Notes under the pieces: model-generated
Databases searched by the model: none
What the model was told of the DNA's origin: nothing
Seen by the model: only the letters and a program-made list of their open reading frames with translations
IMG/VR virus record: IMGVR_UViG_3300020419_001305
Coordinates: 14,285-78,284 of that record
Strand: one strand, 5' to 3'
DNA: 64,000 nucleotides
Source: a virus
Program-made: the position numbers and the translations under genes
Shown here: piece by piece, positions 14,240 through 26,400 of the stretch
Layout: each line of letters starts with the position of its first letter
How positions within the stretch are numbered: the stretch's first letter is position 1

Positions 14240-14823
14240 TGGAATATCTTAGTCTCTTTCCTACCCTTATAGGGACTTTTAATCTTAAAGAAGTTGATAA
14301 CGATATCTTAATTAAAAAGATGGAGATGTCAGGCAATGTTCAACACGGACTTATAGAAAACGGAGTCAGTAGTTATGTAGGCGGAGAAGATTGTTTTCTT
14401 ACTAGACTAGGAGTATCAGATTTAAAAAATAGTATTAAAACAAAAATTAATGAATATTGTTTCCAATCAGGCATAGCACCTAATTTTATTATAAACAGTT
14501 GGGCTAATGTCATTGGACAATCAGGATATGTAAAAAGACATAGACATGAAAAATCTATTCTCAGCGGAGCATACTATCCAACGAATAGTAATGCTAATTT
14601 AATACTTGAGAATCCTAATACAAACTTTCAAATGACACAAACGAACGTTAACGAAACAATATTTAATTGTGACAAAGTTACAATAAAACCAGAGGCAGGC
14701 AAATTAGTAATTTGGCCTAGCTACATATATCATTCAACCGAGAATAACAGTGATGAAAAAAGATATACAGTAAGTTTCAATACTTTAGATGAATCTTACA
14801 AAATTGCAATAAATAGACAGTAA
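14239..14823 (+). CDS. 2OG-Fe(II) oxygenase-like protein (TIGR02466 type)
   Basis: SWANV..HRH..SGAYY..WPSYIYHST..RYTVSFN. Confidence 0.8.
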   Translation: MEYLSLFPTLIGTFNLKEVDNDILIKKMEMSGNVQHGLIENGVSSYVGGEDCFLTRLGVSDLKNSIKTKINEYCFQSGIAPNFIINSWANVIGQSGYVKRHRHEKSILSGAYYPTNSNANLILENPNTNFQMTQTNVNETIFNCDKVTIKPEAGKLVIWPSYIYHSTENNSDEKRYTVSFNTLDESYKIAINRQ

Positions 14824-23937: not shown

Positions 23938-24104
23938 TTAGGATATGGCATTATTGGTGTAAAGCAATGGGTAGTAGAGCTTATGATAATGACCGAAAAG
24001 ACGATCATGTACATAATATAATTAGAACATTTTGGTTCTTATTACACATAGTTACTTGTTGTATGATTATAGCTGGTAACGGAAGGATGTTGAATATATG
24101 GTAG
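23934..24104 (+). CDS. Small membrane protein
   Basis: SD AGGAG/GGAG; WCKAMG motif, one TM. Confidence 0.65.
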   Translation: MIRIWHYWCKAMGSRAYDNDRKDDHVHNIIRTFWFLLHIVTCCMIIAGNGRMLNIW

Positions 24105-24808
24105 ATAAATTTATTTTTGATGTGGACGGAACACTCACACCTAGTAGACGGCAAATAGATGATGACTTTGCCGTTTTCTTTTCAGACTTCTGTGCTGAAA
24201 ATGATGTATATCTTGTTACTGGAAGTGATAGAGAAAAAACAATCGAACAGGTTGGAGAAGAAATATACAGTCTTGCTGATAGAGTTTACAACTGTTCTGG
24301 AAGTGATGTCTGGGAAGGAAATGTAAATGTTTATACAAGCGACTGGCAAATACCAGAAGAAGCAGAAAAATGGCTCAAGGGAGAATGTAGGTGTAGTGAA
24401 TTTCCTCTAAGGACAGGATTACATATTGAGAAAAGACCAGGTATGGTAAATTTCAGTGTTGTTGGTAGGAATGCTACAATGGGAGAACGTCAACTTTATG
24501 TTGAATGGGATACTAAAGAAAATGAACGAATTAAAATAGCTAAAGAATTCCAAAAGTTTTTTCCTGCTATCCAGGCAGTGGTAGGTGGTGATACTGGAAT
24601 TGATATTTTTCCGTATGGAAAAGATAAGGCCCAAATTATAAATGACTTTAATGAATTAGATGATACTTTACACTTTTTTGGAGATAGAATGGATCCTGCT
24701 GGAAATGATTATCCACTTAAGAAAGTAATACTTGACAACGATCTTGGTGTATGCTACAATGTAGAAGGTTGGAAACACACATGGAAGTTATTAAAAAAAC
24801 ATGACTAA
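24098..24808 (+). CDS. HAD-IIB hydrolase, eukaryote-type phosphomannomutase-like
   Basis: FDVDGTLTPSR, VTGSD, IEKRPGMVNFS, GGDTGIDI, DKA, FFGDRMDPAGNDY. Confidence 0.85.
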   Translation: MVDKFIFDVDGTLTPSRRQIDDDFAVFFSDFCAENDVYLVTGSDREKTIEQVGEEIYSLADRVYNCSGSDVWEGNVNVYTSDWQIPEEAEKWLKGECRCSEFPLRTGLHIEKRPGMVNFSVVGRNATMGERQLYVEWDTKENERIKIAKEFQKFFPAIQAVVGGDTGIDIFPYGKDKAQIINDFNELDDTLHFFGDRMDPAGNDYPLKKVILDNDLGVCYNVEGWKHTWKLLKKHD

Positions 24809-25832
24809 ACGTATAGGATTCGCATGTAAATACATGCACGAGAATCAAAACCAAAAAAAGAAAATATTAGAAGAAATACAAAGACCTTTGAATACAAGGT
24901 CAACAACTGTTGCTTGGTTAAATAGACAAACAAAAGAAGTAGCAGAAGAAAGATTATGGGATATTTGTAAACATAATATCCAATCATATTATAACTTGAT
25001 AAAGTATGTAGGAGGATTGCCACATGAGTTACGAATGGTTAGACTTGGTTCCGATGTATTGCCTGTTTATACTGAGCCTACTTGGGGCTATTTCTGGAAG
25101 TTACCTGATGTACGTAAATATTGCGAACAGGCTTTGGCACCAGTCGGTAAGTTGGCTCGCGATCTTGATGTACGCCTTAGTATGCACCCTGGTCAGTTTA
25201 CTGTCCTTGCTAGTGCTAGTGACGATATAGTTGAAAGAAGTATAGAGGAGTTTGAATATCATGTTGATGTCGCCAGATGGATGGGCTTCGGCCAGCAATT
25301 CCAAGATTTTAAGATCAATGTCCACATCTCCGGCCGTAAGGGTCCAGCCGGTATCCTCGACATCCACCCAAGATTATCTCCGGAGGCGAGAAACACAATT
25401 ACAATCGAGAACGACGAAAACTCGTGGGGGCTTGACGCAAGTCTTGAACTTGGACACAAACTCGCTTTGGTCCTCGACATACACCATCACTGGGTCAAAA
25501 CAGGTGAGTATATTAACCCCTCCGACGATAGATTTTCTCGCGTGATAGATAGCTGGCGTGGTGTACGTCCTGTTATACACTATTCTGTTTCTAGAGAAGA
25601 TTATCTTGTAGATTTTGATCCTAATACAAAACCCGTAATGGATACACTATTGCTTGAAGGTTACAAAAAACAAAAACTAAGAGCCCATAGTGATTTTATG
25701 TGGAACAACTCAGTCAATGATTGGGCATTAAGTTTTTGGGAACACGCAGATATTATGGTAGAGAGCAAGGCTAAAAACCTAGCTAGTGAGAAGTTATTTC
25801 AACACTGGATGTCAACCACGCAACACTACTAA
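24801..25832 (+). CDS. uvsE: UV damage endonuclease
   Basis: RIGFAC, VRLSMHPGQFTVL, IENDE, LVLDIHHHW, PVIHYS, RAHSD, DIMVESKAK. Confidence 0.92.
   Translation: MTKRIGFACKYMHENQNQKKKILEEIQRPLNTRSTTVAWLNRQTKEVAEERLWDICKHNIQSYYNLIKYVGGLPHELRMVRLGSDVLPVYTEPTWGYFWKLPDVRKYCEQALAPVGKLARDLDVRLSMHPGQFTVLASASDDIVERSIEEFEYHVDVARWMGFGQQFQDFKINVHISGRKGPAGILDIHPRLSPEARNTITIENDENSWGLDASLELGHKLALVLDIHHHWVKTGEYINPSDDRFSRVIDSWRGVRPVIHYSVSREDYLVDFDPNTKPVMDTLLLEGYKKQKLRAHSDFMWNNSVNDWALSFWEHADIMVESKAKNLASEKLFQHWMSTTQHY
25024..25230 (+). CDS. Candidate overprinted two-TM protein in +1 frame of uvsE
   Basis: AGGAGG (25010-25015) 8 nt before ATG; two long hydrophobic segments. Confidence 0.45.
   Translation: MSYEWLDLVPMYCLFILSLLGAISGSYLMYVNIANRLWHQSVSWLAILMYALVCTLVSLLSLLVLVTI
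25261..25545 (+). CDS. Candidate overprinted Ser/Thr-rich protein in +1 frame of uvsE
   Basis: AGAGGAG (25244-25250) 10 nt before ATG; coincides with a GC-rich patch. Confidence 0.4.
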   Translation: MLMSPDGWASASNSKILRSMSTSPAVRVQPVSSTSTQDYLRRRETQLQSRTTKTRGGLTQVLNLDTNSLWSSTYTITGSKQVSILTPPTIDFLA

Positions 25833-25839
25833 ATACAGT

Positions 25840-26400
25840 ATGCGTTTTTTAGAAATACAAGACTGCCAAAGAACCAAGGCTAGGACATGTCAATGTAAAG
25901 ATATTGAAAAAATATCTGAAGATGTAGACATTCCGGTGGTAGCAATAAGTGATCTAGAACACTCCGATAAAGTCAAAGGTACTATATTATTCATGCAGAA
26001 GAAAGGTTCTCCTACTCTTATTAAAGGTAAAGTAACAGGATTAGAACCAGGAGCACATGGATTTCATATACACGAGTTCGGAGACCTAAGTCAAGGTTGT
26101 GAATCAGCAGGCGCCCATTATAATCCAGACGGTGTAGATCATGGCGATCTCGAAGATGGACATGTGGGAGATTTAGGAAACATCGAAGCAAACGAAGACG
26201 GCATTGCCGAATTTTCTTTTCCAGCAAAAAGAGTAGAATTGATTGGTGAAAGAAGTATTGTAGGTAGAGCTGTTGTCGTTCACAGTGATGAAGATGATCT
26301 AGGTAAAGGCGGAGACGCAGAAAGCCTTAAGACAGGTAACGCAGGCGACAGGTTAGCTTGTGGTGTTATTACCTTAACAAAAGGAGAAAATAATGATTAA
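25840..26400 (+). CDS. sodC: Cu/Zn superoxide dismutase
   Basis: HGFHIH, GAHYNP, HVGDLGN, GRAVVVH, GNAGDRLACG; start ATG 25840 after TAAATA. Confidence 0.95.
   Translation: MRFLEIQDCQRTKARTCQCKDIEKISEDVDIPVVAISDLEHSDKVKGTILFMQKKGSPTLIKGKVTGLEPGAHGFHIHEFGDLSQGCESAGAHYNPDGVDHGDLEDGHVGDLGNIEANEDGIAEFSFPAKRVELIGERSIVGRAVVVHSDEDDLGKGGDAESLKTGNAGDRLACGVITLTKGENND

Follow-up and report, generated by a model that had tools for sequence, protein, structure and literature searches.

The gene for a UV damage endonuclease (uvdE) of an uncultured marine jumbo phage, tailed and with a genome of roughly 250-350 kb, contains one stretch of DNA that, judged from its sequence, very probably encodes three proteins. 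The reading that we favor and consider quite likely is that two lineage-specific overprinted genes, ORF-A and ORF-B, lie in the +1 frame of uvdE and are started at internal ribosome-binding sites. The gene is located in a window of 64,000 nucleotides from IMG/VR record IMGVR_UViG_3300020419_001305 (positions 14,285 to 78,284 of that record), and all positions given here are those of the window. A preliminary description had proposed hidden genes nested in a DNA-repair gene, and this proposal is supported by stop depletion, synonymous constraint, and conserved starts and stops. The two frames display the sequence features by which overprinted genes are recognized, namely ORFs longer than those of the nulls, a conserved frame with conserved boundaries, lowered synonymous divergence, and a start and ribosome-binding site of their own.

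The host gene runs on the plus strand from ATG 24801 to TAA 25832 (343 aa, frame 0) and represents the ancestral host frame. Its product gives a full-length profile match to PF03851 (E 8e-39, 133.9 bits versus a cut-off of 24, residues 6-267), and residues 44-263 are homologous to solved UVDE structures (3tc3, E 3.7e-19; 2j6v, E 4e-18); the host frame is a regular member of the UVDE family, aligned through both overlap regions. IMG/VR holds more than 600 relatives of UvdE, and a DNA-level search of cultured phages returned no match. The neighbors of uvdE are a PMM-like gene and a Cu/Zn SOD, not lysis genes. Within the upstream PMM-like gene, a consensus scan found a candidate sigma-70-like promoter on the plus strand (TTGACA-17-TACAAT with TG, 24732..24760, 11/12 consensus matches), which by this pattern match may drive a uvdE mRNA bearing all three frames.

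ORF-A extends from ATG 25024 to TAG 25230 on the plus strand (68 aa), with the Shine-Dalgarno motif AGGAGG at 25010..25015, 8 nt 5' of its start codon. ORF-B, on the same strand and likewise in the +1 frame, extends from ATG 25261 to TGA 25545 (94 aa) and has a second in-frame ATG at 25267 and a Shine-Dalgarno-like GAGGAG at 25245..25250, 10 nt 5' of ATG 25261. The spacer between the two (plus strand, 25228..25245) holds conserved +1-frame stops, TAG 25228-30 and TAG 25243-45. The coordinates, frame, Shine-Dalgarno motifs, and lengths first noted for these ORFs all agree with the sequence, and dual coding covers more than 490 nt of uvdE. Motifs of the Shine-Dalgarno type precede about 60% of the phage's genes.

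We compared 160 distinct relatives that were picked by UvdE similarity alone (65-88% amino acid identity). The ORF-A frame is without stops in 141 of them and interrupted in 19, and the ORF-B frame is without stops in 126 and interrupted or truncated in 34; stops in the +1 frame of close homologs had been named beforehand as an observation that would speak against nested genes, and there the frame is uninterrupted. When the UvdE protein was re-encoded with the phage's codon usage, the +1 frame was open in 0.06% of runs over the ORF-A stretch (region A) and in 0/5000 over the ORF-B stretch (region B), and local codon shuffles gave a mean probability of an open frame per sequence of 0.098 (A) and 0.015 (B). 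The flanks carry 5.4 and 7.4 stops per sequence in the +1 frame, matching expectation. In contrast, where local codon usage predicts 2.1 stops for region A and genome usage 4.5, only 0.52 are observed; for region B the predictions are 2.5 and 6.6, respectively, and the observed number is 0.23. Shuffling codons within amino acids gave a ratio of observed to shuffled +1 stops of 0.24 in A (z = -14) and 0.08 in B (z = -20), z-scores that overstate independence because the sequences are related and recombine. A conservative set is formed by the 12 sequences that have diverged at 45% or more of synonymous codons; 9 of them have A open where 1.2 would be expected, and 6 have B open where 0.2 would be.

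This depletion, 4- to 12-fold, is confined to the ORF-A and ORF-B stretches, and the spacer carries about 2 stops of the +1 frame in 11 codons among the relatives, at least the expected number. No comparable depletion was detected in the +2 frame or in the two antisense frames that can be tested by shuffling; with antisense stop ratios of 0.78-1.06 in B, an antisense overlapping gene was rejected. The comparison of relatives thus demonstrates, at the level of sequence, frame- and region-specific selection that keeps both frames open, with the ends of ORF-A and ORF-B conserved.

The same selection can be seen in the choice of individual codons. In the flanks, NTA makes up 52% of Ile/Val/Leu codons before C/T and 39% before A/G. 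In region A the corresponding shares are 42% and 4%, and in region B 46% and 3%. For instance, Ile is written ATA in B at 298 of 496 sites where this is harmless and at 4 of 774 where a +1 stop would arise. An A or G following a nested second-position T is avoided before a codon that starts with a purine because TAA, TAG, or TGA would otherwise be formed.

The anomaly that first drew attention to the gene is one of composition. GC content over 25000-25600 is 45-50% as compared to 35.6% for the whole window, and among the 2961 segments of 60 codons drawn from all window genes, the 13 with the highest GC3 all fall in this patch of uvdE. Third positions were originally described as mostly T and then unusually C-rich, and the succession holds, with "mostly T" being slightly too strong: region A has a T3 of 0.50 (0.38 genome-wide) with a GC3 of 0.33, and region B has a C3 of 0.39 (0.13 genome-wide) with a GC3 of 0.56. 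Relative to UvdE re-encoded with the phage's codon usage, C3 in B has a z of 7.9 and pyrimidine at the third position in A a z of 4.1, and C/(C+T) at four-fold sites is 0.56 in B versus 0.16-0.24 elsewhere. Codon position 3 of uvdE is codon position 2 of both ORF-A and ORF-B, so selection on the nested proteins would be written into the synonymous sites of uvdE. The suggestion that composition follows the ORFs is borne out: a T at the third position of a uvdE codon specifies a hydrophobic residue in the ORF-A frame, and a C there specifies Ser, Thr, Pro, or Ala in the ORF-B frame. In region B, T would suffice for the avoidance of stops, yet C is preferred, which argues for selection on the composition of the +1 protein.

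One rival to overprinting is an old recombinant or horizontal segment from a higher-GC donor, with the open frames and the Shine-Dalgarno-like motifs arising as by-products of GGA-GGA and GAG-GAG codons. Gly-Gly codons do always give GGNGG, higher GC removes stops generally, and uvdE is clearly mosaic among relatives; between the window and one relative (L002), differences at four-fold sites are 0.06 (A), 0.25 (B), and 0.64 (C). However, a T3-rich stretch followed by a C3-rich one was seen in all of the first 64 relatives, and the composition pattern is common to all 160 even though their synonymous sites have largely turned over. Since the GC patch is family-wide and persists where 45-56% of four-fold sites differ between relatives, it is no recent recombinant tract, an origin that the preliminary description had held open. 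Moreover, region A is T3-rich and not GC3-rich, the stop depletion survives local-usage shuffling and is limited to one testable alternative frame, and the use of NTA depends on the next base. The outgroups provide a further argument, as even with a GC3 of 0.4-0.6 they retain stops in B. We regard a recombinant patch as a very improbable explanation.

These outgroups are four cultured jumbo phages whose UvdE is 44-48% identical, and both frames are closed in all four, with 1-2 stops each in the ORF-A frame and 4-6 in the ORF-B frame. Within the ingroup tree (FastTree), the open state is spread throughout, basal branches included, with scattered losses, and ORF-A and ORF-B have been lost or truncated independently of each other.

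Lower synonymous divergence of uvdE in both stretches had been proposed as a test of dual coding, and this test came out positive. In 71 independent close pairs, synonymous divergence is 0.70x that of the flanks in A, 0.58x in B, and 0.40x over the spacer at 25230-25259 (sign tests 55/71 and 59/71; Fisher p < 1e-29). The drop within the overlap is moderate, not strong, and entropy per column at four-fold sites equals that of the flanks in A and is slightly lower in B, so that constraint on the +1 protein sequence appears to be moderate only. Some rare codons are fixed at single sites in B, e.g., CGC 25539 in 57/64 relatives, and near the catalytic D-I-H-H-H-W motif, some synonymous sites hardly vary (for example GAC 62/64, ATA 61/64, CAC 58-60/64).

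Such near-fixed sites could reflect codon-specific selection at active-site residues, and they are an argument for a constraint that does not act through protein at all. An RNA structure, tuning of UvdE translation or folding, or an element that serves regulation or packaging could then be its target, and translation of the open +1 frames would not be productive. Any element in the DNA or RNA would be blind to frame, whereas the depletion of stops is restricted to the +1 frame and to the intervals that the conserved ORF boundaries enclose. Rfam yielded no match, and the predicted folding of region B is less stable than that of its shuffles (z = +1.8); on these grounds an RNA structure was rejected. 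Tuning of translation would leave the conserved or compensated ATGs unexplained, as well as the point at which T3 gives way to C3, which coincides with the ORF boundary. As such, we consider a constraint of this type improbable.

The starts of both ORFs offer evidence of a different sort. Whether the +1-frame starts and stops are conserved had been put forward as a check, and among the 160 relatives they are conserved or compensated. For ORF-A, an ATG is present at 25024 or at 25006 in 157/160, with neither in the remaining 3. The alternative start on the plus strand at 25006..25008, which in the window is shut at once by TAG 25009-25011, is used by relatives: in 70/160 it is present with the frame open into ORF-A, and 62 of these are without ATG 25024. 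Where ORF-A starts at 25024, a Shine-Dalgarno-like core is found in 85 of 95 relatives, and the uvdE codon that supplies the AT of this start is NAT in 94 and NAC in 1, as compared to a genome-wide share of 30-42% for NAC.

For ORF-B, GAG makes up 16% of Glu codons genome-wide, and GAG-GAG precedes the ORF in 83/160 relatives, 82 of which have ATG 25261. Another 68 have GAAGAA at this position, of which 66 lack ATG 25261 and 50 use ATG 25267 without an obvious Shine-Dalgarno motif. Altogether, in about 40% of relatives the GAGGAG-ATG start is missing and ORF-B has a different ATG with no clear Shine-Dalgarno, and one or the other of ATG 25261 and 25267 is present in 141/160. Sixteen of the 68 GAAGAA relatives have neither ATG, and most of those inspected keep ORF-B open.

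These 16 relatives fit with programmed +1/-2 frameshifting out of the uvdE frame, which would produce not independent small proteins but fusions of a truncated UvdE with the other frame, and public protein sets do hold chimeras that pass from frame 0 to +1 (P0008, P0009, and P0021). Sequence is skipped in these chimeras, though, which suggests indels or errors of assembly. A conserved slippery site was not noticed, and the start codons are kept or compensated in nearly all relatives for ORF-A and in most for ORF-B. Because conserved stops lie directly 5' of both ORFs, entry by frameshifting would have to occur inside the ORFs themselves. Frameshifting is accordingly a poor candidate in our judgment.

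Under overprinting, a single mRNA would be read in two frames. Ribosomes starting at 24801 would produce UvdE, and others would be recruited internally, at AGGAGG-8 nt-ATG 25024 for ORF-A (at ATG 25006 in some relatives) and at GAGGAG-10 nt-ATG 25261 for ORF-B (at ATG 25267 in some relatives); we infer translation of both frames, and from these starts, from the patterns described above. T at the shared position would then specify the Leu/Phe/Ile/Val of a membrane helix in ORF-A, and C the Ser/Thr/Pro/Ala of a polar, disordered, and basic ORF-B.

ORF-A is predicted to be a small membrane protein. It has hydrophobic segments at residues 4-31 and 40-68, its AF2 model is helical (pLDDT 85), and at least one TM segment is found in 136 of 141 intact ORF-A sequences; the N-terminal TM helix is conserved, and only about one relative in two retains the second hydrophobic segment. 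ORF-B is predicted to be a basic, Ser/Thr-rich, mostly disordered protein, with 27% Ser+Thr and a pI of 8.6-10.9 across the frames of the family and an AF2 model with a pLDDT of 48 and one helix at 35-50. A comparison to holins and other lysis proteins found the TM helix in ORF-A, no Pfam or PHROG family, and no lysis-cassette context. No lipobox-type motif was seen by inspection of the two translations, and identity as a two-component spanin (Rz/Rz1) was rejected, the host gene being UvdE and no lipobox having been seen.

Pfam and PHROGs yielded no family for ORF-A or ORF-B, and a protein atlas returned only unnamed clusters with borderline recognition. A word-indexed search for stand-alone homologs found none, retrieving only P0001, a uvdE frameshift chimera, and a full HMM search with an ORF-B profile retrieved nested-ORF calls, frame chimeras, and two A-B fusions, with no independent family. 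Calls of the nested frames were found only in a few entries of public protein sets, and none of the four annotated phage records inspected has them. In rare relatives (P0003 and P0007), A and B form a single fused ORF of 157-173 aa; these fused forms, together with the adjacency of the ORFs and their shared frame, hint at a unit. A search with P0003 gave 59 new distinct IMG/VR loci, in which a continuous A-B fusion is absent and the spacer holds 1-3 stops each. These loci were left out of the unbiased tallies because they had been selected with +1-frame peptides.

Fully nested genes are textbook in tiny phages such as phiX174 and MS2 and in the Rz/Rz1 spanins, the Rz1 gene of which has a start of its own in the +1 frame. 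To our knowledge, nested genes are rarely documented in large dsDNA phages, in which annotation pipelines call almost none. Gene E within gene D of phiX174 (Microviridae) likewise lies wholly inside another gene and encodes a small membrane protein that has a TM helix at its N terminus, and the third positions of its host gene are T-rich over the overlap (PMC8227390). T at these sites would be the source of hydrophobic second positions in a gene read in the +1 frame. The narrow phylogenetic range of gene E marks the nested gene as the de novo frame, and the range of ORF-A and ORF-B is likewise narrow. Unlike in phiX174, the host here is a repair enzyme of a ~250-350 kb tailed phage and not a scaffold gene of a 5-kb ssDNA phage, and there are two consecutive nested ORFs with no sequence similarity to E. 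Lambda Rz/Rz1 is a case in which one tailed-phage gene entirely contains another, on the same strand and in a different frame (PMC5295617, PMC6139136). However, the embedded gene there encodes an outer-membrane lipoprotein (Rz1) that forms a complex with the inner-membrane spanin encoded by its host gene, whereas the host of ORF-A encodes the cytoplasmic UvdE and ORF-A shows no lipobox. With the de novo overprinted accessory proteins of viruses (Rancurel et al., Keese & Gibbs, reviewed in PMC8227390), ORF-A and ORF-B share restricted distribution, biased composition, disorder in the case of ORF-B, weak-to-moderate purifying selection, and a lack of homologs. Most documented overprinting concerns small RNA or ssDNA viruses, whose genomes are limited in size; a jumbo dsDNA phage, in contrast, has no shortage of coding space.

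As to function, we can only speculate that both products are accessory, ORF-A as a small inner-membrane protein and ORF-B as a basic, flexible protein with nucleic acid or a second protein as its possible binding partner. The original proposal of a membrane protein plus partner is supported as to the two nested ORFs and the membrane-type character of ORF-A; the partnership lacks such support, the ORFs having been lost or truncated independently. It is conceivable, if unlikely, that ORF-A as membrane anchor and ORF-B as basic flexible effector form a functional unit co-expressed with the UV-repair enzyme, linking repair to a membrane-level decision. If this were true, DNA-damage repair would be tied to lysis timing, exclusion, or host takeover, with three proteins obtained from one 1-kb gene of a jumbo phage.

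The comparative signal adds two new predicted small proteins inside a conserved repair enzyme of a widespread marine phage clade. It makes uvdE a clean natural example of dual coding reshaping codon usage, with T3 corresponding to a TM helix and C3 to a polar, disordered protein, and local anomalies in codon composition may be used in the same way to find hidden genes in metagenomic phage genomes. The "synonymous" sites of this uvdE are not neutral, which bears on dN/dS and recombination analyses of the gene.

The UV damage endonuclease gene uvdE (24801-25832, + strand) is a regular member of its family, with a PF03851 match (E 8e-39) and residues 44-263 of its product aligning to solved UVDE structures. 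The IMG/VR record spans 78 kb, 64 kb of it in the window, and CheckV estimates a completeness of 22%, which implies a genome of ~350 kb; the tail-fibre, virion protein, DNA ligase and Clp-type protease genes in the window identify the source as a tailed phage. Upstream of uvdE lies a eukaryote-type phosphomannomutase (PMM)-like gene (24098-24808, PF03332) and downstream a Cu/Zn superoxide dismutase (SOD) gene (25840-26400, ATG at 25840), in what looks like a small stress/auxiliary gene block of a marine jumbo phage. The first 8 nt of uvdE, with its ATG, lie within the final codons of the PMM-like gene (24801-24808), the 3' end of which holds a near-consensus sigma-70-type promoter candidate (24732-24760; TTGACA-17-TACAAT, with an extended -10 TG) ~40 nt ahead of the uvdE start. 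AGGAG-type Shine-Dalgarno (SD) motifs precede ~60% of the phage's genes; uvdE and the Cu/Zn SOD gene both lack one of their own, and that of ORF-A is among the strongest in the window.

The preliminary description had reported a composition anomaly inside uvdE and read it as two SD-led ORFs overprinted in the +1 frame, namely ORF-A (25024-25230, + strand; 68 aa, AGGAGG 8 nt upstream) and ORF-B (25261-25545, + strand; 94 aa, GAGGAG 10 nt upstream). The coordinates, SD motifs and frame all proved correct when re-checked against the sequence, and the anomaly is real. GC content rises from ~33% to 45-50% across 25000-25600; third codon positions of uvdE are 50% T over ORF-A (T3; 38% genome-wide) and 39% C over ORF-B (C3; 13% genome-wide), with a GC3 of 56% over ORF-B, and the top 13 GC3 values among the 2961 60-codon windows across the window's genes all fall within this patch. 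As a null model, the UvdE protein was re-encoded 5000 times using the phage's own codon usage, against which both stretches are extreme (z = 7.9 for C3 in region B, z = 4.1 for pyrimidine content in region A); the +1 frame was open by chance in 0.06% of re-encodings over ORF-A and in 0 of 5000 over ORF-B. Overprinting explains both stretches, since T at uvdE position 3 becomes the hydrophobic second position of ORF-A codons and C becomes the Ser/Thr/Pro/Ala second position of ORF-B codons.

The same anomaly could, as the preliminary description allowed, reflect a patch acquired from a higher-GC donor. Searching IMG/VR with UvdE frame-0 peptides only, we retrieved 160 distinct coding sequences with 65-88% protein identity to the window's UvdE. 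The T3-rich-then-C3-rich pattern was present in every one of the 64 distinct sequences that the first search yielded and is thus family-wide, despite 45-56% of four-fold sites differing between sequence pairs, i.e., near saturation. As a foreign compositional relic would decay at such silent-site distances, a private recombinant patch was rejected. The gene is nonetheless a mosaic: at four-fold sites the window differs from L002, the locus of one IMG/VR relative, by 0.19, 0.06, 0.25 and 0.64 in successive segments, a sequence pattern that implies frequent internal recombination of uvdE in this phage clade, yet recombination does not account for the T3/C3 pattern. Comparisons of the window with two further relatives' loci (L011 and L012) show that the mosaics differ from relative to relative.

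For a stop to arise in the +1 frame, codon position 2 of uvdE must be T, and the two bases after it (position 3 and position 1 of the following codon) must both be purines. In the N-terminal flank, 5.4 such stops per sequence were observed (6.5 expected from genome codon usage, 5.5 from local usage), and in the C-terminal flank 7.4 (7.5 and 7.9 expected), against 0.52 in the ORF-A region (4.5 and 2.1 expected) and 0.23 in the ORF-B region (6.6 and 2.5 expected). When synonymous codons were shuffled among positions of the same amino acid within each region of each sequence, which keeps local usage exactly, the observed/expected ratio of +1 stops was 0.24 for ORF-A (z = -14) and 0.08 for ORF-B (z = -20), against 0.97-1.19 for the +2 frame and 0.78-1.27 for the two testable antisense frames. 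The avoidance depends on codon context: the NTA share of Ile, Val and Leu codons is 42% before C/T and 4% before A/G over ORF-A, 46% and 3% over ORF-B, and 52% and 39% in the flanks. Over ORF-B, Ile is encoded by ATA in 298 of 496 harmless contexts and in 4 of 774 stop-creating ones. In a subset of 12 sequences differing at >=45% of synonymous codons, chosen to limit non-independence, ORF-A is open in 9 (1.2 expected) and ORF-B in 6 (0.2 expected). Since a DNA- or RNA-level signal cannot be reading-frame-specific, this pattern speaks for the +1 frame being translated. An antisense gene was rejected, the antisense frames having no comparable stop depletion, as was an RNA structure (no Rfam match; shuffled sequences fold more stably than region B, z = +1.8). 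At four-fold sites C/(C+T) is 0.56 in region B versus 0.16-0.24 elsewhere, and at most at-risk Ile sites ATC is more frequent than ATT. T, the genome default, would suffice for stop avoidance, yet region B uses C, which indicates that selection acts on the nature of the ORF-B residues, beyond mere openness.

Two further comparisons among uvdE homologues, both proposed in the preliminary description, bear on this reading. Across 71 phylogenetically independent close pairs, synonymous divergence is moderately reduced: 30.7% of codons differ silently in the flanks, 21.6% over ORF-A (0.70x; below the flanks in 55 of 71 pairs), 18.0% over ORF-B (0.58x; 59 of 71) and 12.4% (0.40x) in the 30-nt spacer that holds the putative ORF-B ribosome-binding site. 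Over ORF-A, four-fold sites have the same per-column entropy as in the flanks; over ORF-B it is slightly lower. Synonymous constraint over the two ORFs is therefore moderate, despite which some sites are nearly fixed on genome-rare codons: 57 of 64 sequences have CGC at 25539 (2% of the genome's Arg codons), 62 of 64 have GAC at three sites (30% genome-wide), and 44 of 64 have GAG-GAG at 25245-50 (GAG makes up 16% of Glu codons).

Starts and stops are also kept. An ORF-A start ATG is found in 157 of 160 relatives, being ATG 25024 in 95, of which 85 carry a GGAG-type core 8-9 nt before it, and ATG 25006 (18 nt further upstream, with the frame open) in 62; in the window itself, TAG 25009 closes the frame that ATG 25006 would open. 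The AT of ATG 25024 comes from a uvdE codon that is NAT in 94 sequences and NAC in 1, against 30-42% NAC genome-wide. ORF-B occurs in two linked forms, GAGGAG-N10-ATG 25261 (82 sequences) and GAAGAA (68 sequences, 66 without ATG 25261, of which 50 have ATG 25267 as their start but no clear SD and 16 lack both ATGs); as the SD and ATG sites lie 11 nt apart, we do not count their covariation as independent evidence. In relatives without a clear ORF-B start, programmed frameshifting out of uvdE is conceivable though unlikely, since the ATGs are conserved and so are the stops ahead of each ORF, which makes independent initiation the better reading. The stops bounding both ORFs are conserved, with approximately two +1 stops in the 11 codons of the spacer.

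Both frames are stop-free in 111 of 160 relatives; 30 keep only ORF-A open (17 of them have a single ORF-B stop that leaves a 66-76-codon ORF), 15 only ORF-B and 4 neither. On the UvdE tree, the open state extends throughout the ingroup, basal branches included, with scattered losses. Four cultured jumbo phages used as outgroups (Erwinia Y3, Erwinia pEa_SNUABM_13, Dickeya AD1 and Phage NCTB; 44-48% UvdE identity) each have 1-2 stops in ORF-A and 4-6 in ORF-B, although their GC3 is 0.4-0.6. Under the phylogenetic criterion for telling the de novo frame of an overlapping pair, reviewed in PMC8227390, the +1 ORFs are the de novo frames, as UvdE is widespread and they are confined to one clade. 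Protein and family searches found no stand-alone homologue or family match for either ORF, as expected of de novo genes.

The predicted ORF-A product is hydrophobic and retains an N-terminal TM helix, with at least one predicted TM segment in 136 of 141 intact copies and a second in about half; its AlphaFold2 model is a confident helix (pLDDT 85). The predicted ORF-B product is basic and polar (pI 8.6-10.9, mean net charge +6, range +2 to +11, 27% Ser+Thr) and, as modelled, largely disordered, with a single helix spanning residues 35-50 (pLDDT 48). The preliminary description had further proposed a two-gene module; the overprinted ORFs hold up, but the module finds no support, given that the UvdE tree shows the two being lost independently. 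Two public protein representatives, P0003 and P0007, do carry ORF-A and ORF-B as a single +1-frame ORF of 157-173 aa in which the stops of the spacer read as Gln, and such natural fusions hint at a functional link. The IMG/VR locus L260 covers the 3' portion of the locus encoding P0003. Four other public gene calls (P0001, P0008, P0009 and P0021) start in one uvdE frame and run on in the other, either from 0 to +1 or from +1 to 0, and some of them omit stretches of sequence; such chimeras probably stem from indels or misassembly of metagenomic contigs, or else represent genuine uvdE pseudogenes.

A small, here predicted, membrane protein nested inside another gene matches the architecture of E within D of phiX174, for which T-rich third positions in the host gene have been noted over the overlap (PMC8227390), and the nested architecture also matches the embedded Rz/Rz1 spanin arrangement (PMC5295617, PMC6139136). 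ORF-A and ORF-B belong to neither family: they have no sequence similarity to those systems, no lysis context and no lipobox, and their host gene encodes a cytoplasmic repair enzyme. A literature search found no description of overlapping genes in uvdE. The +1-specific stop avoidance, lowered synonymous divergence and kept starts and stops support the overprinting interpretation, and judged from these comparisons it is very probable that one nested ORF or both are genuine, translated genes. Two nested genes would stand out in a jumbo dsDNA phage, and the comparative signal for them is unusually clean.
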